Positions 1,926-14,020 of a stretch of DNA of 64,000 bases are shown one piece after another. The DNA is taken from positions 1 through 64,000 of the forward strand of contig CAZCRK010000004.1 in NCBI GenBank assembly GCA_964501035.1, given 5' to 3'. Each line of letters opens with the position of its first letter. Within the stretch, counting starts at the first letter, position 1. Position numbers and translations under genes: made by a program. The notes beneath the pieces were generated by a model that saw only the letters and a program-made list of their open reading frames with translations, was not told the origin of the DNA and did no database searches.

Positions 1926-2918
1926 CTAAACAACAGTACCTAAATGATAATATGGTTCATTATTAGATTGTAAGTGTTTCTCTAAGTCGCTTACATTTTC
2001 TTTTCTGACAATAATAATCAAACCTATTCCTAAATTCATACTATGTCTCATATCATCAGTAGGAACATTTCCTAAATCTTGTATTAATGAGAATATTGTA
2101 GGCCATTCCCAAGCATCCCAATCAATCGATATATTCTGATTTTCTCCAATAACCCGCATAGTATTATCAACAATTCCACCACCGGTTATATGAGATAAGC
2201 TAATGAGCCAATCTTTCTCTAAAATTGGTTCGATGATTGGCAAGTAGGAACGATGTATAGCCAGTAACGATTCCTGTAAGGTGCATCCAAGTTGATCAAC
2301 ATAATCATCAACATCAAAATGACCAAGTAATACCTTGCGAGCTAAAGAATAGCCATTGGTATGTAGTCCAGTAGACTTTAATCCAATTAAAACATCGCCA
2401 GATTTAGTTTTCCGATTTGGAAGCATATTATTTTTATCAACAACTCCAATAATCGTACCGCTCATGTCATACTCACCAGTTTGATAAAAACCTGGCATTT
2501 CAGCTGTTTCTCCACCAATGAGTGAACATGAATTTTCTATACATGCTTTGGAAAGCCCACTTACAACAGATTCCAATACATCTACTTCTAATTTGGCAGT
2601 TGCAAAATAATCTAAAAAGAACAAGGGTTTTGCTCCAACTGCTAAAATATCATTGGTGCAATGATTCACTAAACATTGCCCAATTGTGTCGTGTTTGTTT
2701 GCTAAAAATGCTATTTTCAACTTAGTACCTATTCCATCAGCACTTGAAACTAATACTGGAGTATCATAATCATTTTTTGGAAATTCGAAACAACCACCGA
2801 ATCCTCCGATTTCTGTTAAAGTATTAGCCGTAAAAGTAGATTTTACTAATTTGCTTATCTTGGAAACTGCCTTAGTTCCAGTTTCGATATCAACACCTGA
2901 TTCTTTATATGTTGTCAC
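1926..2918 (-). CDS. purM: Phosphoribosylformylglycinamidine cyclo-ligase (AIR synthase)
   Basis: YKESGVDI; DGIGTK; GGETAEMP; HTNGYSL; HITGGG. Confidence 0.97.
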   Translation of the reverse strand: MTTYKESGVDIETGTKAVSKISKLVKSTFTANTLTEIGGFGGCFEFPKNDYDTPVLVSSADGIGTKLKIAFLANKHDTIGQCLVNHCTNDILAVGAKPLFFLDYFATAKLEVDVLESVVSGLSKACIENSCSLIGGETAEMPGFYQTGEYDMSGTIIGVVDKNNMLPNRKTKSGDVLIGLKSTGLHTNGYSLARKVLLGHFDVDDYVDQLGCTLQESLLAIHRSYLPIIEPILEKDWLISLSHITGGGIVDNTMRVIGENQNISIDWDAWEWPTIFSLIQDLGNVPTDDMRHSMNLGIGLIIIVRKENVSDLEKHLQSNNEPYYHLGTVV

Positions 2919-4728
2919 TATCTTTATTATCTCCTTGATAAATACTATCTATATCTTCTTTAAAATTTTCTTCTACTACTTTCCTAACAACTTTCAATGT
3001 TGGGGTTAGTTCACCTTTTTCGAGTGTTAATAATCTTGAAATTAAAATGAATTTTTTAATTTTTTCATACTGGGAAAATTTCGACATAGCTTCTTCAATT
3101 ATAGTGGTGAATAATTCTTTAACATCTACATGTTCTACAATTGCTTCGTGACTAGTTACATCTTTACCAATTTCCTTTAAGTAAGCAATTACATTTTCAA
3201 AATTTGGAGCTATAATTGCACATATAAAATTTCGCTTGTCACCGATAGCAACAATTTGTTCAACATACGGAGATGCAACTACAGCATTTTCCAACGGTGC
3301 AGGAGCAATATTTTTTCCACCAGAGGTTACAATAATACTTTTTTTCCTATCGGTTATCTTAAGATATCCATCTTGATCAATTTCACCAATATCGCCTGTA
3401 TAAAACCACCCATCCTTATCAATTACTTCATTAGTAGCTTCCTTATTATTGAAATAGCCCAGCATAATGCTTGGACCTTTAGCTAAAATCTCACCATCAT
3501 TTGCTATCTTAACATCGATGTTATATAAAGGTTTCCCTACACTACCAAATCGTTTATCAACTTCTGTATTACACGTTAACACTGGACTTGTTTCTGTAAG
3601 GCCGTAACCTTCAAGAATGGTTATTCCGACAGATGCAAAAAATTCAGCAATTTCTTGTGATAACGGAGCACCTCCTGATACAAAAAACCTCAATCTTCCA
3701 CCTACCTTGGCACTTATTTTGCTATAAATTATTTTATCTGCTAAATTATATTGCATTTTTAACCCGAATGGAATTGTTTCTCCAGCTAGATTAAGAGTAG
3801 AAACATCACGACCAACTTTTGTAGCCCAAGCGAAAAGCTTTTGTTTTATGTTTGGTGCAGTTTTTAAACCCTCGACAATTTTAGCATGTATTTTTTCATA
3901 CAAACGTGGTACACTTAAAACAATGGTTGGTTTTACCTCTACTAAATTTTCAGGTACTGTTTCTATATTTTCAGCATAATATACAGATGCTCCCACAGAA
4001 AATGCAGAGAAATGTCCGCCCATTCTTTCAAAAACATGACTTAAGGGAAGGAATGATAAAAATGTTTCATCTTCAGTAAATTTGACAGAATTTATTGTAG
4101 CATCAACATTGGACATTAAATTTTTATGACTCAACATAACTCCTTTTGGGTTTCCTGTAGTACCTGATGTATAAATCAGAGTTAATAAATCATCAGGTTT
4201 TGAGGATGAAACAAGGTCCGTTTCAAAAGAAAGTTCGGACTCATTTGCAAAGCTAGTTCCTAGATTTAAAAAATTAGTAAAATTCATGACTGACTTCTCT
4301 TTACCGTTATACGAGTTGTCTAGCACAATAATTTGTCTTAACTCAGGGCACTGGTCTTTAATTTCAAGAATTTTTTCTAATTGTTCATTGTTTTCTACAA
4401 AAATTACTTTAGTTCCAGAATCAAACAGAATATACAAGATTTGTGATGCAATTAATGTTGGATAAATACTTACGGTTGCTGCGCCACTAATAATGGAACC
4501 ATAATCACACATTGCCCATTTTGGTGAGTTATTTGCAAGAATTGAAACTCTATCACCTTTTGTAACACCAAAGGATAATAGTCCAAATGAAATATCTTTA
4601 ACTGTATATTTAATTTCTTGCCCAGTTAAACCAATCCACTTTGATTCACGCTTATAATAGTACAATGGTTTTTTGTCAAATCTTGTTGTTATGTCATTAA
4701 ACATTTGTGATATTGTAGTGAATGCCAT
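2905..4728 (-). CDS. Long-chain fatty acid-CoA ligase (AMP-binding)
   Basis: YTSGTTGNPKG; EGYGLTE; TGDIG; DRKK..GGKNIAP. Confidence 0.93.
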   Translation of the reverse strand: MAFTTISQMFNDITTRFDKKPLYYYKRESKWIGLTGQEIKYTVKDISFGLLSFGVTKGDRVSILANNSPKWAMCDYGSIISGAATVSIYPTLIASQILYILFDSGTKVIFVENNEQLEKILEIKDQCPELRQIIVLDNSYNGKEKSVMNFTNFLNLGTSFANESELSFETDLVSSSKPDDLLTLIYTSGTTGNPKGVMLSHKNLMSNVDATINSVKFTEDETFLSFLPLSHVFERMGGHFSAFSVGASVYYAENIETVPENLVEVKPTIVLSVPRLYEKIHAKIVEGLKTAPNIKQKLFAWATKVGRDVSTLNLAGETIPFGLKMQYNLADKIIYSKISAKVGGRLRFFVSGGAPLSQEIAEFFASVGITILEGYGLTETSPVLTCNTEVDKRFGSVGKPLYNIDVKIANDGEILAKGPSIMLGYFNNKEATNEVIDKDGWFYTGDIGEIDQDGYLKITDRKKSIIVTSGGKNIAPAPLENAVVASPYVEQIVAIGDKRNFICAIIAPNFENVIAYLKEIGKDVTSHEAIVEHVDVKELFTTIIEEAMSKFSQYEKIKKFILISRLLTLEKGELTPTLKVVRKVVEENFKEDIDSIYQGDNKDSDNI

Positions 4729-4880
4729 AAAAAAAGTCCCTTCAGAATTATTAATAATTATGCTTCATTTATATATTAAATCTAAAATGAGTTATGCGAG
4801 GAATAAAAATATTATTATTCACAAAGAAAGATAATTGACCATGTTGCAACTTATGGTTAAATTTTGTGCTCAATTTCTTT

Positions 4881-4964
4881 GCCGAGGTGGTGAAATTGGT
4901 AGACGCGCTGGATTCAAAATCCAGTATCCTTCGGGATGTGTGGGTTCGAGCCCCACCCTCGGTA
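4881..4964 (+). tRNA. tRNA-Leu (anticodon CAA), long variable arm, CCA not encoded
   Basis: Acceptor stem GCCGAGG/CCTCGGT; D-arm GGTGAAATTGGTAGAC; anticodon stem CTGGA/TCCAG with loop TTCAAAA; variable hairpin ATCC-TTCG-GGAT; T-loop GTTCGAG. Confidence 0.97.
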
Positions 4965-5100
4965 CAATAATAAAATTATGTGACCTATGCCTCATTTCCC
5001 CATTTTATATATTTTTGTGACTTAAGTTAAGAATTTCTAGTATGCAAGAATCTTATAATAGTTCATCGTATTACTAAATAACAAAGCAAATGAGGGATAA

Positions 5101-5301
5101 ATGGAAAGTAAAGAAGAAAAAAAACAACAAATATTGTTTATTATTTGGGTCAATTTATTCATAGGTCTATATAACATTTATGTATTTTCTGAAATGAGTT
5201 CAATATTTCATCTTGTCATAGGTGTTTTAAATGTAGGAGTATGGGTGTTCTTTAGAAAAGAATCTGTTAGAATGGCTTTTTTGGAATTTAGAAACAGATG
5301 A
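5101..5301 (+). CDS. Small two-TM hypothetical membrane protein
   Basis: 66-aa ORF with GAGGG RBS and two hydrophobic segments. Confidence 0.7.
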   Translation: MESKEEKKQQILFIIWVNLFIGLYNIYVFSEMSSIFHLVIGVLNVGVWVFFRKESVRMAFLEFRNR

Positions 5302-5310
5302 TTATATTTT

Positions 5311-6087
5311 TTATTCAGTAGAAATTCCATTCTCATCATAAGATTCAACGATTTCCAATAGAACACCGTAATCATATTTTTTCACAAATTTTTGTTGACC
5401 ATTAGGGTACCATTCTTTCGAGTAACCATGAAGCTGGTCATTTAAGTAATACCACTCTGCTTTTAACTTTCCACTATTATACCATTTTTGTTGCAACCCA
5501 TTTAATTTTCCATTTTTATAATTATATAATTGCATTAACTGACCATTCTTGTACCATTTCTTTTGAATTCCATGACGTCTTTCATTTTTAAATTGATATT
5601 CAGTGAATAACTGGCCTTCTTCATACCATTCTCGTAAAACACCATTTTCGGATTCAATTACAGGAATTGACTTCTCAAGGAGTTCTTGAAAAATATCAAC
5701 AAATTTACCTTTAATCCAGAAAACAAATTCACCTGATAATTTTGCTGAACGCTTTGAATCTATTTCAATAAATGGATTTTGTTCATTCACCATAACTGAA
5801 TTATTTATATATTGAATGCTATCACAAATATTAACAGTAATTTTTCCAGCCATCTCAGATAAAATATTAAATTCAAGTTCACATTTTGCTCGTTTTTTGC
5901 TCTTGAAATTAATATCTGAAATATGTTTTAATTCTACAGAATATAAACCATCATCTTGATTAATCAGTTCCATAATGTTGATTGTTTTGGTTTTAGGTAA
6001 TATATCAACTTTATACTCTCTAGTAGTTATGATAGTTTGCGAAAACATTACCGCAAAAGTAGCAATTATTAAAATCAAACATTTCAT
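5311..6087 (-). CDS. Secreted MORN-variant repeat protein (YwqK-like C-terminus)
   Basis: Signal peptide; about four repeats of G....WY.NGQ....Y.NG.L.G. Confidence 0.85.
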   Translation of the reverse strand: MKCLILIIATFAVMFSQTIITTREYKVDILPKTKTINIMELINQDDGLYSVELKHISDINFKSKKRAKCELEFNILSEMAGKITVNICDSIQYINNSVMVNEQNPFIEIDSKRSAKLSGEFVFWIKGKFVDIFQELLEKSIPVIESENGVLREWYEEGQLFTEYQFKNERRHGIQKKWYKNGQLMQLYNYKNGKLNGLQQKWYNSGKLKAEWYYLNDQLHGYSKEWYPNGQQKFVKKYDYGVLLEIVESYDENGISTE

Positions 6088-6089
6088 CT

Positions 6090-6896
6090 TTATCCTTTAT
6101 TTGTATTGCAATTACTTGGTATCCAACTAATAATATAATCTGCAACAGTTTTCCAGTTTTTCTCAAGCATCATATCATGCCCCATATTATCAAACAACTT
6201 TATTGTAGAATTTTGATAAAACTCAGCAGTTTTTTGCACTAAATCTACTGAAATAATTTGATCCATTTCTGATCCCAGCACCAATATTGGGTGTTTGAAT
6301 TTAAGTGGCTTATTTAAACTATTAAATGACATATCATAAAATGCTTTAAAAGACTCATTATATAACATATTAGTAAATTTATTTTTAACATTTGGCTCAA
6401 CATTCTCAGACAAAAACAGCTGAGAGCTCACTTTGCGATTTGATATAAATGGTTTGAGATTCATCGTTGAAAATGATTTAAGAAATTTTAAAGGATGCAA
6501 TTTAAACAACTTAAACAATACAGACTTGATGCCATTAGGAGGTACAGAATTCATTAATATTATTCCAGAAATGTTATTGTTTTGAGCATACTTTTGTGCA
6601 ATAAATCCTCCCATAGAGTGCCCAATCAAAAGAGGTGGCAATGTAAACTTACTAGATACTGATTTTACATCTAACAGAAATTGCTCAATTCCGTTGAAAT
6701 GAATATTCGATCCATTCTTACTTAATCCTCTTCCTGATAAGGTCACAGCAAAAGAATCAAAATTATTTTTTGCAAAATAATCCATAAAATATTCATTCCA
6801 GCAATGCGAATCATGGCAGGCTCCATGAATAAATATCACGGGTGGGTTGCCAGCATTCGTACTGCTCTTTTTCTTTAATATTTCTAATTGAGTCAT
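6090..6896 (-). CDS. Alpha/beta-fold hydrolase (esterase/lipase-like)
   Basis: FIHG oxyanion motif; GHSMGG nucleophile elbow; Asp in SEMDQII; His in GHDMML. Confidence 0.92.
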   Translation of the reverse strand: MTQLEILKKKSSTNAGNPPVIFIHGACHDSHCWNEYFMDYFAKNNFDSFAVTLSGRGLSKNGSNIHFNGIEQFLLDVKSVSSKFTLPPLLIGHSMGGFIAQKYAQNNNISGIILMNSVPPNGIKSVLFKLFKLHPLKFLKSFSTMNLKPFISNRKVSSQLFLSENVEPNVKNKFTNMLYNESFKAFYDMSFNSLNKPLKFKHPILVLGSEMDQIISVDLVQKTAEFYQNSTIKLFDNMGHDMMLEKNWKTVADYIISWIPSNCNTNKG

Positions 6897-6897
6897 T

Positions 6898-8190
6898 TTA
6901 GTTTTGGATTAAATAAAAAGTTTGGTCTTTAATATTTTTACTTTTTGCTTTTATTCTTTCTATGTTTGTTTGAGAAATCCAATGACAAGTTTTAGAAAAT
7001 TTATACAAAGATGTATCCATCAATATTAATGGATTTTGTAAATCTGGCATTTCCCTGTCTGTGCGAATAAACTTTGCTTCTGTTTCTAATCGTTTTGCAG
7101 TTCCAGCTGACTCGCCAGTAATTGTGGTTTTTTTTAATTTTTTAGGACCTTGCAACCCTAGCAATCCTTTCCCACTTGCAATACCGATATCGTAAATTAA
7201 TTTGCTCTCTAACTCTGAATTTACCTTTTCAAAAACTTTTGTAGATAATGAGTTCGCGAATCGTAATGAATTGCTTAACACTTCTTGTTCATTTTCATCG
7301 TCACTAAAAAATATGATAAATAATTCATCTGCTGTCCAATCAGCAAAATAATTTCCTCTGGGAATTATTTTGTCAAGTTCGTCAAAAACAATATCATAGA
7401 AATTTTCAAACAATTTTTCAATATATTCTGGTTTATGTTCTTTTGCTAACTGTTGATAATTTCTCCAGTCTGAACATAAACAGACAGTGTAACGTTCCTG
7501 AGGCACAAAAACATTATCTAAATCTAAATCTGTATCAGAAATGGCAATATGTCTAGCTATGTTTTTTGGAACTAATGATGATGTATGGTAAAATCTTTCA
7601 AACATTGCTAAGATAAATCTTTTTCGTAAAAAAAATGCTAAAGAAAACATAAGAAAATGAAACAAAATTAGATATAGGCAATCATATAAGATATCTTGGC
7701 GTAAGAATGGGATTATTAAAAGTGGGAGTACAGCAAAAAGATGTATAACATATTGCTCTCTCCAAAACTTATAGGCAAACATGGTTGTTATTATTATAGT
7801 AAGAAAATTAGCTAGCAAAACTATTGAATAATGACTGGTTGATGTGCTCAATAAAAAATAAGAATAAACCCAATTATAGAGAAGGCCCGGAAAAAACAAA
7901 TGAAATTGAAGTTTTGCCGAAGTAGAAGAATTGCTAAATGTTTTATTTTTTTCAAAGAAAAACAGATTGAGAAAAAGTAAAAGAATTGAGATTATTCGAA
8001 ATCGAGTAAATATATTACCATCACGAAACAATAAGAAGTCAAAAGGAATAAGACCTGCCATTATTACAATTGCTAGTATATTATAATATTTTACATAAAC
8101 TGCCTTGTTTAAAATGACCCAATTTGAATAAATATTACCAACATCTTTTAGGGTAAAAGGTGATTTATATTCAGCAACTAATTTGCTCAA
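6898..8190 (-). CDS. Multi-pass membrane class III nucleotidyl (adenylate/guanylate) cyclase-like protein
   Basis: About six N-terminal TM helices; C-terminal motifs VCLCSDWRNY, DWTADELFIIF, IGIASG..LLG.QG and TITGESAGTAKRLE align with class III cyclases. TTG start; an in-frame stop lies 18 codons upstream. Confidence 0.82.
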   Translation of the reverse strand: MSKLVAEYKSPFTLKDVGNIYSNWVILNKAVYVKYYNILAIVIMAGLIPFDFLLFRDGNIFTRFRIISILLLFLNLFFFEKNKTFSNSSTSAKLQFHLFFPGLLYNWVYSYFLLSTSTSHYSIVLLANFLTIIITTMFAYKFWREQYVIHLFAVLPLLIIPFLRQDILYDCLYLILFHFLMFSLAFFLRKRFILAMFERFYHTSSLVPKNIARHIAISDTDLDLDNVFVPQERYTVCLCSDWRNYQQLAKEHKPEYIEKLFENFYDIVFDELDKIIPRGNYFADWTADELFIIFFSDDENEQEVLSNSLRFANSLSTKVFEKVNSELESKLIYDIGIASGKGLLGLQGPKKLKKTTITGESAGTAKRLETEAKFIRTDREMPDLQNPLILMDTSLYKFSKTCHWISQTNIERIKAKSKNIKDQTFYLIQN

Positions 8191-8310
8191 TGCGCTGAAA
8201 ACAATGTTATTTTTAATTAAAGATGTTATTTTTTTCTTCCTTTATGATAAAAACATAAAGCAAGAAATTACGGATATATTGAGTATAACTCAAACCTTAT
8301 TAGAAGATAT

Positions 8311-8868
8311 TTATATAATAAATACTGCGGCGTCGGCTTTTATTGTAACAATTCCTTCAATTGTCGAGAAACAGTTCCCAAAGTAAGATTTTTCACCAGT
8401 CTTTCGCAAACTGTTTATTTTTACATGCTGTTTAACATCACGTGTTTTAGTTATCATCTTTGGCATTTCAATTTCTAAATTTGTAGGCCATACTTTTAAT
8501 ACTTCATCTCCGAAAGGATCATAGGTAAATCCAAACTCATCACATAAATAAACATATATTAACTTCTGCAAGTGTACTAAAGCTGTTAGAAATATCAGAT
8601 GATTTGGACTATTTCGCATACTGGTTTCATACTCTCTATCAAATACACCAGTTATTTCACGATGCTTTATCAAATATTCTTTAATATTTAAAGTTTCACA
8701 TACTTGTTTGTTTGGCATGACATTAAACGAAACAATATTTTTACTAGTTTCTTTTATAGTTTTCGAAAATTTACTTATTTTAAGAATACTAGAATCATTT
8801 GCAATATTTGTAGCTTGCTTTTGAATGTTGTTTGAATTTTCTTGATTTAATATAATTGTATCTGCCAT
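8311..8868 (-). CDS. Hypothetical protein, possible single hotdog fold (AfsA/FabZ-like)
   Basis: 185 aa, coupled to the upstream gene (1-bp gap). NHLIFLTALVHLQKLIYVYLCDEFGF forms a central helix followed by beta-rich segments. The CDS is secure; the fold call is tentative. Confidence 0.6.
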   Translation of the reverse strand: MADTIILNQENSNNIQKQATNIANDSSILKISKFSKTIKETSKNIVSFNVMPNKQVCETLNIKEYLIKHREITGVFDREYETSMRNSPNHLIFLTALVHLQKLIYVYLCDEFGFTYDPFGDEVLKVWPTNLEIEMPKMITKTRDVKQHVKINSLRKTGEKSYFGNCFSTIEGIVTIKADAAVFII

Positions 8869-8869
8869 T

Positions 8870-9619
8870 TTAATTCCTGTTTGATTTACCTGTTGAGTTA
8901 TACGAAGGGAAGAACATACCAGTTTGTTTCATATACTGAAGGTACTCAGGAAATATTTTAACCAAGGCATGCTCTTCCCTAATAGCTGATATTTTATAGT
9001 AAGTTGTAAGTAAAACAATATTTATCACAATTAACAGAGAACCAGTTGCAATACAGACACCAATCAATAATAATATATTAGCCGTATAAATTGGATGTCG
9101 AATATGCTTATATAATCCAAGCTGTACAATATCATTAGGTATGTAAGAATTATAACATGGGCTATAATGTGTTCCCAACGTTAATTTAGCAGATACAAAT
9201 AATGCCATGGCTAAAGATACAATAGCCATACCTGTGTACATTATAGCAACACTGTGATGCCATTTAGCTAAAATTGATAAATCTGAAGTAAATGCTAATA
9301 TTGCAATAGATATTGTAGAAAGTTGAATAAATTTATACACAAGCTTGAAAGACCTATTTGACTTTATTGATCCTTGTTTATTAGCTACATCCACTTTATC
9401 ATTTTTGTAAAACCCAGCAGAAATTAATGCAATAGTAATAACAAACATCACTCCTATTAACTGATCTATTGAAATCGAATTTAACCATTCTACAAAAATA
9501 TTTTTATTGAAGGTTAACAGTGGAACAATATTATCAGAAAATACTAACGATAAGTAGAGAGCACACATCATCAATGAAACAATAAAACTATTTTTAATTA
9601 ATTTTGTTAAACTATTCAT
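8870..9619 (-). CDS. ICMT/PEMT-family integral membrane SAM-dependent methyltransferase
   Basis: GLYKHIRHPIY; REE; EYLQYMKQT..FFP. Start placed at 9619 (MNSL), preceded by a GGAGGT RBS. Confidence 0.88.
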   Translation of the reverse strand: MNSLTKLIKNSFIVSLMMCALYLSLVFSDNIVPLLTFNKNIFVEWLNSISIDQLIGVMFVITIALISAGFYKNDKVDVANKQGSIKSNRSFKLVYKFIQLSTISIAILAFTSDLSILAKWHHSVAIMYTGMAIVSLAMALFVSAKLTLGTHYSPCYNSYIPNDIVQLGLYKHIRHPIYTANILLLIGVCIATGSLLIVINIVLLTTYYKISAIREEHALVKIFPEYLQYMKQTGMFFPSYNSTGKSNRN

Positions 9620-9631
9620 AGCTACCTCCAT

Positions 9632-9820
9632 TTATTCAGTTCGAGTTCTATCAACTTCCTCTATATACCCATGCTCTACAAGCCAATCTTCAATTATCAT
9701 TAATATTTGACTATTCATAGTTCTATATCGTCTAGCAGAAGTTCGCTTCAAAAGATTCCAAATTTTATCTGGTAATCGTATTGATTTTATGCTTTGACTC
9801 TCTGAATTCTTCTTAACCAT
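9632..9820 (-). CDS. Arc-family ribbon-helix-helix DNA-binding protein
   Basis: SIRLPDKIWNLLKRTSARRYRTMNSQILMII matches the Arc pattern lRlP..l...l...A....RS.N..i. Start probably at 9820 (MVKK); the ORF track gives 9835. Confidence 0.8.
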   Translation of the reverse strand: MVKKNSESQSIKSIRLPDKIWNLLKRTSARRYRTMNSQILMIIEDWLVEHGYIEEVDRTRTE

Positions 9821-9864
9821 AACATAATGTAACATTATTTAACAATATGTAACAATAATTAATA
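9820..9864. promoter_or_regulatory. Putative operator: TAACA repeated at exact 10-bp spacing with an embedded palindrome
   Basis: TAACA at 9820, 9830, 9840 and 9850, plus TAATA at 9860; inverted repeat ATAATGT-A-ACATTAT at 9824-9838; abuts the start of the RHH gene. Confidence 0.6.
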
Positions 9865-9920
9865 TTGCTGAAGAGAAATCACCAGGAATTACAAAATTTA
9901 ATTAATTTATTTTGAATTAT

Positions 9921-10688
9921 TTAGTTATTGGACCACTTAGGATTTCTTTTTTCAGCAAATGCCTTTAAAGCTTCTTTGCGATCATTTGTTGGGATAGTTT
10001 TTTGGTAAAGTTTTTTTTCAACTTCTAAAGCATTCTTAATCTGCTTGTGCACCCCTTCCTCAATTGCTTGCTTGGCCAATCTAAGAGAAATTGGAGCATT
10101 ATTTATAATTTCATAAGCTAAATCCATAGTAGCTTCAAACAATTCATTTTCTGATGCAATAAAATCAATTGTTCCATCGATAAATGCTTCTTCTGCTGTA
10201 AAAGTTCGTGCTGAATAAATCCAGTACTTAGCTTTAGAAATACCAATAAGTCTTGTCAATCGTTGCGTGCCTCCTGCCCCAGGTATAATTCCAAGGCTGG
10301 TTTCAGGTAATCCAAGTGATGCGGTTTCTGATGCGATTCTAAAGTCTGCACATAAAGCTAATTCTAATCCGCCACCCAATGCAGACCCGTTAATAGATGC
10401 AACAGTTGGAATTTTTAGATTTGCGAAATGATTAAAACAAGTATTTATAGCATCTACTGTATTCAAAACTTGAGTGTCATTCATTTGCTTTCGCTCTATT
10501 AAATCTGCACCAGCACAGAAATGTTTTTGTTTTGAGTTTAATATTAGCAATTTAATATCTGAGCTAGAATCAACCTCAAGTATTACTTTAGCTAAATACT
10601 CTATTGTCTTTGTTGATAGCGCATTAACCTTTGGTCTGTTTAAACTAATTACAGCTAATCCATTGTCTTGAATAGTCAAATCAATCAT
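9921..10688 (-). CDS. Enoyl-CoA hydratase (methylglutaconyl-CoA hydratase-like)
   Basis: FCAGADL; ALGGGLELAL; PETSLGIIPGAGGTQRL. Confidence 0.93.
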   Translation of the reverse strand: MIDLTIQDNGLAVISLNRPKVNALSTKTIEYLAKVILEVDSSSDIKLLILNSKQKHFCAGADLIERKQMNDTQVLNTVDAINTCFNHFANLKIPTVASINGSALGGGLELALCADFRIASETASLGLPETSLGIIPGAGGTQRLTRLIGISKAKYWIYSARTFTAEEAFIDGTIDFIASENELFEATMDLAYEIINNAPISLRLAKQAIEEGVHKQIKNALEVEKKLYQKTIPTNDRKEALKAFAEKRNPKWSNN

Positions 10689-11028
10689 CTAAACTTAACT
10701 CACTTCTCAAATTTTCTGGTATGTCAACTTCCATCAGTAGTAACGCTTGACCGTGTGTTTTACCTTGAGCGTCATTGATAAGAGATTCGCTACCCCCGCC
10801 TCCTAAACTATCACCTAAAATATAGTTTATTGCAAGCAAATTTGGCATTTCATAACGAATTACATTACCTTTTACAATACTCTTAAAGTGTTCTTTAACT
10901 ACAGATGCGGTCAAAGCTTCTATAGCCCAATCATAGATTTTGGCAGAAGTAAATATTAATCCAGCATTAGAACTTTCACCTTTATCTCCTGATCGAGCAA
11001 ATGCAATCTCCTGTAATTTAACTTTCAT
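10681..11028 (-). CDS. AtuA C-terminal-like small protein
   Basis: ARSGDKG; RYEMPNL.A.N; LGGGG..SL..DAQGK. Confidence 0.85.
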   Translation of the reverse strand: MKVKLQEIAFARSGDKGESSNAGLIFTSAKIYDWAIEALTASVVKEHFKSIVKGNVIRYEMPNLLAINYILGDSLGGGGSESLINDAQGKTHGQALLLMEVDIPENLRSELSLDD

Positions 11029-12377
11029 AACACACTCACTTTCGTTTGAATTAAAGATTTAGGTATCAAAGTTGGCCAATAGGCAACTATTTCTTGAGCT
11101 TTGGGGCGACCACCAGCAAAACCAGTAACTCCAGGAGGTCCAGAGGTTATAACAGGTGCAATTTCTTTACCAAATCTATTTACCTTTGCTTTATCAGAAT
11201 CTTTTACGCCAAGACGTAAAACAATTTCGTTAATTTGGCTTGGTACAGAGTTTATTTCTCCATGACACGATGATAAGCCTAAGTATTCAGTGCTTGTTTT
11301 GTCAAAAGTAAAACCAGCTTTTTCAAGTCTTTTCCAAATAATTTCTGCTGTTAACTTTGCCTTTTCAAGAGCATCTGGACCAGAAATAGTAAGCTGACCT
11401 GAAGCCTTGTAACCTGCAAAATAACTCACAGACACCTTAAATGTATCAGTAGCTTCAAATCCTTTAACGTTTGTTACTTCAACCCTGTTGTTCCCTAAAT
11501 CGTTTAAATTAAAACTAGTAAAATCTACACAAACATCTGGAGAAATATATTTTTGTGGGTTACCCATTTCATATAAAATTTGCTCAGCAACCGTTTCACG
11601 ATTAATCAATCCACCTGTGTTTTCATGTTTTGTTACAACAAAATATCCATCTTCATGCATCTCAATTATTGGATATCCAACATTAAATAAATCTGGTACA
11701 TTTCTCCATCCTGAGAAATTACCACCACTACATTGTGCGCCACATTCTGTTATATGCCCAGCTAATGTTCCGGCTGCAATTAAGTCATATTCATTTTTAG
11801 TCCAACCAAACTCATAAATTGAAGGTCCTAGTGCTAAGCCTGGATCTGAAACTCTTCCAGCAAGCACTATTTGAGCATCATTCTTGAGTGCCTCTGCAAT
11901 AGAAAAGCTGTCGATATATACGTTAGAAGAATACATTTTATCTTTTATTTTATCGAAGGACTCGCCAGAATCCATATTTTCAAAAGATATGTTATCATTT
12001 TTGTAAAAGGATTCCATATTACCAAATATATTGTCTCCTTCGATAATTCCTATTTTTATATCATATCCTAATTCATTTGCAACTTTAGATATAGCTTTTT
12101 GACATGCTTGTGGATTAACTCCACCTGCGTTGGTTATTATTTTTATATCTTTTTTAATTATGTCAGGGAGAATTCGTTTAACTAAATCTACAAAATCACG
12201 TGCATACCCAGCGTCTGGACGTTTTAACTTTTGTCGTTGCATAATTGAAAGTGTAACTTCAGCTAAGTAGTCTAAAGTTAAGTAATCAATTCCACCAGCT
12301 TTAACTAAATTAACGGGTGCATCTATAGAATCGCCCCAAAATCCTTGTCCATTTGCAATCTTAATTACGTTACTCAT
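11025..12377 (-). CDS. Acyclic terpene utilization AtuA family protein (DUF1446)
   Basis: GFWGD; LDYLAEVT; TNAGGVNP; AGHITECGAQCSGGN; EQILYE. Confidence 0.92.
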   Translation of the reverse strand: MSNVIKIANGQGFWGDSIDAPVNLVKAGGIDYLTLDYLAEVTLSIMQRQKLKRPDAGYARDFVDLVKRILPDIIKKDIKIITNAGGVNPQACQKAISKVANELGYDIKIGIIEGDNIFGNMESFYKNDNISFENMDSGESFDKIKDKMYSSNVYIDSFSIAEALKNDAQIVLAGRVSDPGLALGPSIYEFGWTKNEYDLIAAGTLAGHITECGAQCSGGNFSGWRNVPDLFNVGYPIIEMHEDGYFVVTKHENTGGLINRETVAEQILYEMGNPQKYISPDVCVDFTSFNLNDLGNNRVEVTNVKGFEATDTFKVSVSYFAGYKASGQLTISGPDALEKAKLTAEIIWKRLEKAGFTFDKTSTEYLGLSSCHGEINSVPSQINEIVLRLGVKDSDKAKVNRFGKEIAPVITSGPPGVTGFAGGRPKAQEIVAYWPTLIPKSLIQTKVSVL

Positions 12378-14020
12378 ACTTGAAGTACTCCAAATTTAGG
12401 TTCAGGTATTTTTGTTTGATGGTTTATTATCTCCAAAGAACGCTCTAACACCTTCCTTGTATCCTCTGGATTTATTATCTCATCTACCCACAATCTTGCC
12501 GCTGCATATCTAGGATCTGATTGCTTATCATAACGCTTTTTTATTTTTTGAAAAAGATCATCCTTTGTTTTTTGATCAACATCACCCATCTTGGCTAATT
12601 TTATTTGGGAAAGCGTTTTTGCAGCTTGTTCACCACCCATTACTGCAATTGAAGCGGATGGCCATGCAAACATAAAGCGAGGATTGTAAGCTCGTCCTGA
12701 CATTGCGTAGTTGCCAGCCCCATAACTACCACCAATCACGAGAGTAATTTTAGGGACAACTGAGTTTGAAACAGCATTTACTAATTTTGCTCCATCCTTT
12801 GCAATTCCACCCCATTCTGCTGTTTTTCCAACCATAAATCCGTTTACATCATGTATAAAAATTATTGGAACCCCATCTTGATTGCAATTCATGACAAATC
12901 GTGCAGCTTTATCTGCTGAATCTGAGTAAACAACACCACCCATTTGCATTTCACCTGTTTCTGTACGTGCAATCTTCCTCTGATTAGCAACAATACCTAC
13001 ATTATATCCACCAATTCTTGCATTTCCGCAAACAAGGGTTTGTCCATAAGATTGTTTGTATTCTATAAATTCGCTTGTATCAACGATTCTACTTATAATT
13101 TCTCTAATATCATATTGAACGTTTTTGGTTGGATTAAATATGCCAAGCAATTCATCGCTTTCAAAATCAGGTTTAACAGAATCGAATTTTTCATATAATC
13201 TATCTTGTGAAATGTTAATATGAGCTATTAAGTCCTTGATTCTATTTAATGCACGCAAATCATCTTTCTCATGATAATCAGTTGTGCCACTAATTGCACT
13301 ATGTGTTTTGGCACCGCCCAACGTTTCTAAATCAATATCTTGCCCAATAGCTGCCTTCACCAATGCTGGTCCAGCTAAAAACATACTTGACCCTTCAACA
13401 ATTACATACTTATCACACATGACTGGCAAGTAAGCTCCCCCTGCAACGCATGGGCCCATAACACATGCAATCTGTGGAACACCTAAGGCAGACAAACGAG
13501 CATTATTGTAGAAGATTTTTCCAAAATGGGGTTCATCTGGAAAAACTTGATCTTGTAAGGGTAAAAATACACCAGCAGAATCAACTAGATAAATGATTGG
13601 TAGGTTATTTTCTAATGCAATTTGTTGGGCGCGAATGGTTTTTTTTAATGTAATTTCAAAATATGCACCAGCTTTAACAGTTGCATCGTTGGCTACAATG
13701 ACACATTCTTGGTCAGAAATTTTACCAATTCCTGTAATCGTGCCCGATGATGCAGGACTTCCATATTCTTCGTACATTTCATACGCTGCAAAAAGTCCTA
13801 GTTCAAAAAAATCTGACCCACTATCTATTAAGCTGTCAATCCTTTCACGAGCTGTCAATCTACCTTTGTTATGTTGTTTTTCAATAGCAACAGTCCCACC
13901 ACCTTGCTTAATATTTGATCTATTTTTATTAAACTCATTTACAAGTTCATTAAATGCAGCATAGTTTTCTGCATATTTTTGACTATTCAAGTCTTTAGTT
14001 GATGTTCCAATTTTATTCAT
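12374..14020 (-). CDS. Acyl-CoA carboxylase carboxyltransferase subunit (methylcrotonyl-/geranyl-CoA carboxylase beta-like)
   Basis: GRLTARERI; ANDATVKAG; CVAGGAY; GSYGAGNYAM. Confidence 0.93.
   Translation of the reverse strand: MNKIGTSTKDLNSQKYAENYAAFNELVNEFNKNRSNIKQGGGTVAIEKQHNKGRLTARERIDSLIDSGSDFFELGLFAAYEMYEEYGSPASSGTITGIGKISDQECVIVANDATVKAGAYFEITLKKTIRAQQIALENNLPIIYLVDSAGVFLPLQDQVFPDEPHFGKIFYNNARLSALGVPQIACVMGPCVAGGAYLPVMCDKYVIVEGSSMFLAGPALVKAAIGQDIDLETLGGAKTHSAISGTTDYHEKDDLRALNRIKDLIAHINISQDRLYEKFDSVKPDFESDELLGIFNPTKNVQYDIREIISRIVDTSEFIEYKQSYGQTLVCGNARIGGYNVGIVANQRKIARTETGEMQMGGVVYSDSADKAARFVMNCNQDGVPIIFIHDVNGFMVGKTAEWGGIAKDGAKLVNAVSNSVVPKITLVIGGSYGAGNYAMSGRAYNPRFMFAWPSASIAVMGGEQAAKTLSQIKLAKMGDVDQKTKDDLFQKIKKRYDKQSDPRYAAARLWVDEIINPEDTRKVLERSLEIINHQTKIPEPKFGVLQV

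Follow-up and report, generated by a model that had tools for sequence, protein, structure and literature searches.

The window analysed here, a stretch of 64,000 nucleotides (positions 1 to 64,000 of contig CAZCRK010000004.1, GenBank assembly GCA_964501035.1), carries between positions 5311 and 9864 a gene cassette whose conserved core consists of a membrane methyltransferase of the ICMT/PEMT type, a protein of 185 residues that we call P185, and a six-helix membrane domain that forms residues 1-215 of a cyclase-like protein, the sensor. We tentatively propose, giving the idea not quite an even chance, that a small methyl-capped lipid is the product of the two enzymes and the ligand of the six-helix domain, and that a ribbon-helix-helix (RHH) regulator sets the level of the synthase genes. 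A first-pass annotation of this DNA had suggested a methylated, lipid-like signal made by the enzymes and perceived in the membrane, and this core idea is supported at the level of comparative genomics. The same annotation had described six minus-strand genes in two tight blocks, and its coordinates and spacings stand: in the order from the RHH to the MORN gene, the intergenic gaps measure 0 (12 if counted from a later RHH start codon), 1, 120, 1 and 2 bp. The features are as follows:

8870-9631, minus strand: ICMT/PEMT-type membrane methyltransferase gene (open reading frame (ORF); Pfam PEMT and ICMT)
8311-8868, minus strand: P185 gene (ORF; hotdog-fold model)
8191-8310, minus strand: spacer of 120 bp between the P185 and sensor genes
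6898-8190, minus strand: gene of the TM-cyclase (transmembrane cyclase), the sensor protein of 430 residues (ORF)
7546-8190, minus strand: six-helix membrane domain of the sensor, residues 1-215 (AlphaFold2 (AF2) model and homology)
6898-7545, minus strand: divergent class III nucleotidyl-cyclase-like domain of the sensor, residues 216-430 (Foldseek)
9632-9835, minus strand: RHH regulator gene (ORF; Pfam Arc)
9820-9853, minus strand: operator-like element of four GTTA units (phased repeat, 10 bp)
6090-6896, minus strand: alpha/beta hydrolase gene (ORF; Pfam Hydrolase_4)
5311-6087, minus strand: MORN-repeat protein gene (ORF; Pfam MORN_2)
4881-4965, plus strand: tRNA-Leu(caa) (ARAGORN)

The proposal rests above all on the linkage of the core genes. 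An alignment scan for relatives of P185 yielded 19 genome and 37 metagenome loci, that is, 56 loci of which 52 are non-redundant, and the neighbouring genes were called by searching these loci with hidden Markov models built from alignments. A methyltransferase gene lies beside P185 at 42 of the 52 non-redundant loci, and at eight of the ten loci that have no adjoining methyltransferase a contig end lies close to P185. The membrane domain of the sensor or its catalytic domain adjoins P185 at 28 of the 52, a fraction that amounts to 10 of 15 among the loci flanked on each side by 1.5 kb or more. Two of the five exceptions come from a genus that carries its sensor gene at another place in the genome, and three are large genomes (two titled Planctomycetota, one unassigned), none of which has the sensor domain anywhere (0/3). 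The conservation of the neighbourhood across lineages, which had been named as the first check of the idea, is thus seen both for the methyltransferase and for the sensor domain. Moreover, the genes occur in the orders methyltransferase-P185-sensor, P185-methyltransferase-sensor, sensor-P185-methyltransferase and P185-TM-only sensor-methyltransferase as well as in divergent arrangement, and this variation of gene order indicates that the linkage has survived rearrangement.

The phyletic pattern points the same way: in a sample of 401 genomes of the phylum, 14 have P185, 19 have the sensor domain and 13 have both, as compared with about 0.7 expected if the two were distributed independently. 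These 13 cassette genomes represent seven families, P185 and sensor being adjacent on one contig in ten of them, and the sole genome with P185 only is 61% complete and has P185 at a contig end. A genome of the same genus as the source genome contains all six genes in the same order, while in another family (one genus, two genomes) the RHH, methyltransferase and P185 genes stand together on one contig. The six genes had at first been taken for one unit; what the comparison retains of it is a core of methyltransferase, P185 and six-helix domain. Within the same order and class, the cassette loci are titled Candidatus Neomarinimicrobiota or Fidelibacterota, and NCBI places Neomarinimicrobiota under the phylum Fidelibacterota, which we take to be SAR406. 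By this placement, the source organism is probably a marine bacterium of the SAR406 type. Similar cassettes are found in loci titled Bacteriovoracaceae, Bradymonadales and Deltaproteobacteria. The host genomes are small (1.1-3.7 Mb); the source genome itself measures 1.87 Mb in 167 contigs. In seven drafts (G283, G044, G210, G388, G196, G023 and G394), contig breaks fall beside the P185 or the sensor gene, between them or inside the sensor gene, which could reflect strain-variable sequence or a repeat that breaks assembly.

The arrangement in the window is real and no assembly chimera, as contigs from other runs bridge its junctions: a contig of another seawater run (X4 record 29) spans 6476-9382 and thereby the hydrolase-cyclase-P185-methyltransferase junctions, the contig of X3 record 24 spans 7906-10100 with the cyclase-P185-methyltransferase-RHH junctions, and that of X1 record 7 spans 4939-7695.

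The second line of evidence concerns the membrane domain. In the AF2 model of the full-length sensor (mean predicted local distance difference test score, pLDDT, 89.6), membrane helices comprise residues 14-54, 59-81, 96-115, 118-139, 143-163 and 165-204; the outer loops of the six-helix domain are only 1-4 residues long, and helix six continues into the output domain. With outer loops nearly absent, anything that is sensed must be in or at the bilayer. An alternative start of the sensor is the GTG at about 8136. Residues 1-215 have no Pfam hit at E<=0.1, and their 49 relatives give only scattered hits of single members, so that the domain matches none of the described membrane sensor domains in Pfam (MASE and others); its neighbours in the ESM Atlas are MASE2, MASE7 and MASE8 at 0.87-0.88, which we treat as leads only. 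At four loci, the ORF that follows P185 matches the sensor over residues 13-198 only, with 39-44% identity (BLASTP), and these four ORFs encode two HisKA+HATPase kinases and two hybrid kinases with a receiver domain. When the domain alone is aligned, identity is 35-40% to the four kinase N-termini and 36-39% to two stand-alone TM proteins; in one genome, the six-helix domain is carried by a PAS-PAS-GAF kinase of 883 residues. D51, Y109 and F192 are invariant across all output types, and W24, F50, F55, R65, L98, P101, V124, E145 and R189 are nearly so; the polar or aromatic residues D51, R65, Y109, E145 and R189 are among these conserved positions. One and the same membrane domain is therefore found on a cyclase-like output, on a kinase or on no output at all, which is how a sensor module behaves. 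This bears out the earlier assignment of the TM domain as a sensor, insofar as it is swappable across output types; that it senses a ligand is a prediction from these relationships.

The stand-alone copies of the six-helix domain, 217-222 residues long, directly precede a full-length copy of the cyclase type in two lineages (L022:10563-11228 and L026:2000-2650) and may regulate the sensor by pairing with it. A protein of another kind follows the P185-methyltransferase pair in two genomes without six-helix sensor, one titled Planctomycetota and the other an unassigned metagenome-assembled genome: it is a fusion of a Ser/Thr protein kinase with an FGE-sulfatase-type domain (L031:11806-14463 and L036:3787-6699), and it may represent a different read-out.

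We then consider the two enzymes that adjoin this domain. P185 matches nothing in Pfam or NCBIfam. Its AF2 model (pLDDT 85.5) shows a hotdog fold, with strands at residues 43-82, a helix at 93-112 and strands at 124-184, the sheet being wrapped around the long central helix. Comparison with solved structures (VIA) gives a Z of 11.6 to both Rv0098 and FabZ and of 11.3 to SAV606; 47 chains reach Z>=8, led by three hotdog enzymes (Rv0098, FabZ and YhdA), and nearly all of the matches listed are thioesterases or dehydratases. Foldseek likewise returns thioesterases and FabZ at E of about 2e-4. Model and structural matches together agree with the initial description of this protein as hotdog-like. 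At the level of sequence, the family, which comprises 123 clusters at 50% identity, stands apart: none of 59 diverse members (0/59) matches 4HBT, FabZ/FabA, MaoC, FcoT, AfsA or AvrD in Pfam at E<=1, and the P185 profile finds no hotdog protein among solved structures at E<=10. P185 is the founding member of an unnamed hotdog-fold family. Its near-invariant residues are E58, R78, Y80, P88, H90, Q101, Y105, E122, K125 and W127, and of these H90 sits just ahead of the central helix, presumably the position at which FabZ-type enzymes have their catalytic histidine. The ESM Atlas neighbours AvrD, AfsA and FcoT (0.92-0.94 for AfsA and AvrD) are kept as leads only.

The methyltransferase clears the Pfam cut-offs of both PEMT (E 8.6e-9, 36.2 bits against a cut-off of 25) and ICMT (E 3.2e-5, 24.7 bits against 24) and has a polytopic membrane layout, which places it in the ICMT/PEMT superfamily. 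The equivalog models fail on it: it scores 59.2 bits against 160 for isopcys_mtase (NF040696) and 30.6 bits (E 2.6e-7) against 325 for LmtA (TIGR04571), both in NCBIfam.

What the pair acts on is suggested by natural fusions. In three proteins, an adenylation unit (AMP-binding and DIP2-like domains) and a carrier protein precede P185; in three further cases P185 is fused to a carrier protein alone, with a methyltransferase gene following in one; and in one protein P185 is joined to an LCM-type carboxyl methyltransferase, which is of a different fold. These fusions with carrier, adenylation and methyltransferase domains argue that P185 probably acts on acyl-carrier-protein thioesters and that the product is probably methylated. 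Enzymes of the Rv0098/ScoD type are described as acting on an acyl chain on an acyl carrier protein (ACP) loaded by an acyl-ACP ligase, and as adding glycine to it and also releasing the chain by hydrolysis (10.1101/121228). At a locus titled Bradymonadales (L033:10431-12389), P185 and the TM-cyclase are separated by an asparagine-synthase-type amidotransferase; the locus has no ICMT-type gene, and the amidotransferase occupies the place of the methyltransferase. This substitution points to the capping of a carboxylate, which the amidotransferase may convert to an amide where the methyltransferase would form an ester. We infer that P185 frees the carboxylate from the acyl-carrier thioester and that the carboxylate is then capped. 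A metagenome contig (L044:3423-5000) encodes a protein of 525 residues in which AAA domains of the SF1-helicase type precede the P185 domain.

The gene that heads the cassette encodes a predicted regulator with a putative operator of its own. The RHH protein matches Pfam Arc marginally (E 3e-4; 21.0 bits, cut-off 20.4). Its homologs align from residue 6 of the annotated ORF onward, and in the same-genus copy no in-frame ATG lies further upstream; the true start is probably the ATG at 9820 (MVKK...). Directly upstream of this probable start codon, and overlapping it, lies the GTTA array in exact 10-bp phase. The 64-kb window has no other such site, against a chance expectation of 0.03, and this corroborates the repeat-rich upstream element noted in the first-pass annotation. 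The stretch is nearly identical in the same-genus genome, and GTTA-type tandem repeats of about 10-11 bp, with up to seven units, precede the RHH gene in most of the RHH-bearing loci displayed; the gene itself is found at 21 of the 52 non-redundant P185 loci. The combination of an RHH domain with tandem repeats at its own promoter is that of the Arc/MetJ family, for which cooperative binding at the repressor's own promoter is established. The phased GTTA repeats fit such cooperative binding by the RHH protein, a predicted Arc/MetJ-type repressor, by analogy with this family. Just upstream of the RHH gene, three kinase-type loci have a gene for a CvpA (Colicin_V production) membrane protein (L025:7837-8601, L027:1610-2479 and L035:7816-8619).

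As to the output, Foldseek assigns the class III catalytic fold to residues 216-430, the best matches being Cya2 (2w01, E 9e-10) and CyaC (1wc1, TM-score 0.80, root-mean-square deviation 2.7 A), and the full-length sensor model aligns to Rv1625c (7yzk) and adenylate cyclase 9 (AC9). Two putative metal-binding aspartates (D241 and D288) show no variation among 49 sequences: D241 coincides with the first canonical metal aspartate in both pairwise alignments to the canonical cyclases of a relative, D288 with the second in the gapped alignment only. The near-invariant R367 preserves the transition-state arginine, and Thr356 occupies the Asp/Thr position of cyclases. In a scan of the source genome with PF00211, five other, canonical cyclases were detected, the gene in the window not being among them, and the genome has at least four genes for proteins that bind cyclic nucleotide monophosphates (cNMPs). 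Cyclic-nucleotide signalling consequently exists in this cell. These cyclase and cNMP-binding genes lie on contigs C42, C105, C32, C102, C57, C66, C55, C10 and C77, a repertoire that is rich for a genome of 1.87 Mb.

These elements can be joined into the following mechanism. P185 would take a fatty-acyl chain off an acyl carrier protein and release it as a free carboxylic acid, perhaps modified. The ICMT-type methyltransferase, translationally coupled to P185, would convert this acid, within the membrane, into a neutral methyl ester, a small and lipophilic compound. The six-helix domain would bind the product inside the bilayer, and the signal would pass down the long sixth helix to the output, which in this genome is a divergent cyclase-like domain of class III and in sister lineages a histidine or hybrid kinase. 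The RHH protein would bind the phased GTTA units that overlap its own start codon, and the level of the synthase operon would be set by this binding. The whole would constitute a quorum-sensing-like or autocrine lipid signalling circuit, and the product may be released from the cell; the hydrolase would be at most a lineage-specific accessory, such as an esterase that clears the signal, and the MORN protein a neighbour. A methylated, lipid-like product that is sensed in the membrane fits the data as far as sequences and models go. That the cassette represents a lipid signalling system of the autoinducer type not described before, present in uncultured marine bacteria and with a new receptor plugged into both cyclase-like and kinase outputs, is a more doubtful proposition, one that we put forward as possible with a chance well below even.

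Several observations weigh against the circuit as drawn, beginning with the direction of the arrow: adjacency fits equally well with the reverse, namely that the sensor controls the enzymes. Because the P185-methyltransferase pair is present without a sensor in the three large genomes, the pair has a role of its own. The phyletic counts are drawn from related genomes, which are non-independent samples. Six genomes have the sensor only; in four of these the contig breaks off at the 5' side of the gene, a fifth is only weakly matched, and the sixth has 1.5 kb of upstream sequence without P185. In the two genomes of the other family in which RHH, methyltransferase and P185 share a contig, the cyclase, the hydrolase and an acyl-CoA ligase are found on another. 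No response regulator, cNMP effector or exporter occurs among the neighbouring ORFs that were scanned. A search of the sequence ahead of the sensor gene, the 120-bp spacer, gave no phased GTTA array, so that the idea of a regulation shared by both blocks via this array was dropped. The catalytic domain, finally, reaches only 14.6 bits with Guanylate_cyc (PF00211; cut-off 21.9), and the profile of its family finds no solved cyclase among solved structures. A near-invariant glycine (Gly363) stands at the position of the catalytic asparagine, which leaves the Asn-Arg pair incomplete, and the specificity lysine (or glutamate) ahead of the second metal aspartate is missing, the stretch aligned there having Tyr281 or Asp284 and an insertion of 3 residues. 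The domain thus lacks three of the five features by which class III membership was judged, and it may be inactive or make something else. The cyclic-nucleotide output proposed in the first-pass annotation is doubtful for a family without catalytic Asn and specificity Lys. At E<=0.1, PF00211 detects eight of 49 family members, the best at 4.2e-4. The spacer holds two ATAACAT units, only one of which is kept in the same-genus genome.

Given the independent role of the pair and the direction that adjacency leaves unspecified, we weighed the possibility that P185 and the methyltransferase modify a lipid of the cell's own membrane or outer membrane, in the way that LmtA methylates lipid A, and that the sensor reads the state of the membrane or this lipid in the service of homeostasis, no intercellular signal being involved. 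The occurrence of the pair without sensor in three genomes, the sensor's want of an outer domain, the weak LmtA match of the methyltransferase (E 2.6e-7) and a patatin-Omp85 gene that adjoins one locus all speak for it. The LmtA score of 30.6 bits, however, is far under the cut-off of 325, the adenylation-ACP-P185 fusions resemble small-molecule assembly more than bulk lipid remodelling, and a dedicated RHH protein with its own putative operator, together with a sensor that retains 35-40% identity to its kinase-type copies, suits a specific ligand; we therefore rate such a role as unlikely, while according it serious weight. The same fusions are also typical of biosynthetic clusters, the structural neighbours Rv0098 and SAV606 come from lipopeptide pathways, and the language-model neighbours include AvrD and AfsA (leads only), which raises the question whether the pair makes a bioactive lipid, antimicrobial or metal-binding, whose production the sensor and the RHH protein merely tune. 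Against this stand the facts that only two conserved enzymes are present, with no nonribosomal peptide synthetase (NRPS), polyketide synthase, oxidase or transporter recurring nearby, that the host genomes are small (1.1-3.7 Mb), and that the linkage of the sensor is as tight as that of an enzyme would be; a natural-product pathway accordingly strikes us as improbable.

The two blocks could also be unrelated modules kept as neighbours by inherited synteny alone, as the 120-bp spacer between them and the genus with trio and cyclase unlinked in its two genomes (the cyclase-hydrolase-ligase order being kept) might suggest. A linkage that outlasts shuffled gene orders and changed flanks in seven families and in loci titled as other phyla, and the joint presence of both genes in 13 genomes as against about 0.7 expected, make this quite improbable. 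Least credible of all, with a very slight chance in our view, is a Pycsar/CBASS-like anti-phage module with the hydrolase as effector, the alternative raised in the first-pass annotation. Of the seven proteins submitted to PADLOC, only the cyclase matched anything, and weakly so (PycC, E 4e-4, 17.6 bits); the GC content is slightly below that of the flanks. A PycC-family cyclase with an adjacent effector, as Pycsar would have it, is not found here: no cNMP-binding effector adjoins, the hydrolase is missing from nine of the 13 cassette genomes, and in sister lineages kinase outputs replace the cyclase. In addition, the place of the cassette among metabolic-looking ORFs is kept in related contigs, and no mobility gene is among the listed ORFs.

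Comparison with known systems delimits what would be new in a circuit of methyl-capped lipid and six-helix receptor. The Phc system of Ralstonia, whose synthase and sensor genes are neighbours, is alike in that SAM (S-adenosylmethionine)-dependent methylation yields a fatty-acid methyl ester that addresses a membrane sensor kinase, the product being predicted from genes in our case. It is unlike the cassette in that PhcB is a soluble methyltransferase of another fold, whereas the cassette has a polytopic ICMT/PEMT-type enzyme with a hotdog partner and an output that can be cyclase-like. Two papers describe PhcB as the methyltransferase that makes methyl 3-hydroxymyristate and PhcS as the membrane histidine kinase that senses it (PMC8578825, PMC11960443). 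On the receptor side, CqsS of the Vibrio CqsA/CqsS pair, Rv1625c/Cya and the membrane anchors of mammalian adenylate cyclases (ACs) share six helices with minimal outer loops, and in Rv1625c and the AC anchors a helix likewise joins the membrane domain to a class III cyclase fold. Grafting the CqsS anchor onto Rv1625c is reported to have given a ligand-regulated cyclase, taken as an argument for a receptor role of cyclase anchors (PMC4821796), and the membrane domains of mammalian ACs have been proposed as lipid receptors (PMC11606603). Different from CqsS and Rv1625c, the cassette presents one TM module that naturally occurs on cyclase-like and kinase outputs, beside candidate ligand-making genes, and its catalytic domain is far more divergent than that of Rv1625c.

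For the enzymes, FcoT/ScoD/CmiS1 (Rv0098, SAV606) provide the best structural matches to P185 (Z 11.6 and 11.3), and the adenylation-ACP-P185 fusions share the domain logic of the isonitrile-lipopeptide and macrolactam pathways; the differences are that 0/59 P185 members match Pfam FcoT and that no ScoE-type oxidase or NRPS lies near the cassette, the partner being a methyltransferase. AfsA and AvrD, which act in gamma-butyrolactone and syringolide formation, are likewise hotdog enzymes and form small lipid signals from acyl-ACP. AfsA has two hotdog repeats, whereas P185 is a single hotdog domain, and 0/59 P185 members match Pfam AfsA or AvrD. With prenylcysteine ICMT and Leptospira LmtA the methyltransferase shares Pfam membership and the polytopic membrane layout, yet it scores far below both NCBIfam equivalog cut-offs. 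A fixed pairing of an ICMT/PEMT methyltransferase with a hotdog protein was not found in the literature searched, and neither a description of the cassette nor a paper on a signalling system of SAR406-type bacteria of their own was found in the open-access literature, subscription journals lying outside its coverage.

The function of the six-helix membrane domain of ACs is called a "blind spot" in the title of a 2025 review (PMC12414865), and in the two studies cited above it has been approached with engineered chimeras and serum lipids (PMC4821796, PMC11606603). The cassette offers a natural test case, in which one six-helix module occurs with cyclase-like and kinase outputs beside plausible ligand-making enzymes. 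Were the proposal true, it would be a natural instance of a six-helix cyclase membrane anchor paired, as receptor, with its ligand and would point to chemical signalling in uncultured SAR406-type marine bacteria. In any case, two nameless protein families are defined here, the P185 hotdog family with its 123 clusters and the sensor domain, and the recurring pairing of a hotdog protein with a carboxyl methyltransferase is recorded.

The two genes downstream of the sensor are lesser parts of the locus. The hydrolase matches Pfam Hydrolase_4 (E 2e-20) and has a GHSMGG nucleophile motif. At an ortholog threshold of E<=1e-30, it is found in seven of the 401 genomes: four are cassette genomes from two genera, in which it always adjoins the cyclase, and three lack both P185 and the sensor; no ortholog is found in nine of the 13 cassette genomes. 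This phyletic pattern rules out the hydrolase as a core part, contrary to its original inclusion in the unit as the enzyme that destroys the signal, and it is at most a lineage-specific accessory. The MORN protein (Pfam MORN_2, E 7e-15) has a hydrophobic N-terminus, a candidate signal peptide. Its gene follows the sensor in 7 of the 56 loci, all of them of the window's own synteny type, and related marine contigs show the sensor followed by MORN without hydrolase. As had been suspected from the beginning, the MORN gene is probably a mere lineage-specific neighbour.

On either side, the cassette is framed as initially described, by a tRNA and by metabolic-looking, co-oriented ORFs. The tRNA-Leu(caa) stands at the same place in four related contigs, and no integrase or mobility gene is among the ORFs listed for 3500-12500. 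A mobile island at this tRNA was ruled out on these grounds, the same tRNA-Leu and flanks recurring in related contigs; the tRNA-Leu(caa) is a conserved landmark rather than an integration site. GC content is about 0.27-0.31 over the cluster as against 0.32-0.39 in most of the flanks. The flanks at 9921-14020 (minus strand) and 2905-4728 (minus strand) comprise five co-oriented ORFs of 255, 115, 450, 548 and 607 residues, which by eye we take to encode an enoyl-CoA hydratase, a two-part AtuA-like protein, an acyl-CoA carboxyltransferase and a long-chain acyl-CoA ligase. The junction between the hydratase and the RHH gene is conserved in several related contigs. Between the MORN gene and the tRNA-Leu, an ORF of 66 residues with two hydrophobic stretches lies on the plus strand (5101-5301). 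It matches no family in the Pfam, NCBIfam and PADLOC scans; at the same position in the same-genus genome, its counterpart is 83% identical (55/66), and such conservation suggests that it probably encodes a real small membrane protein.

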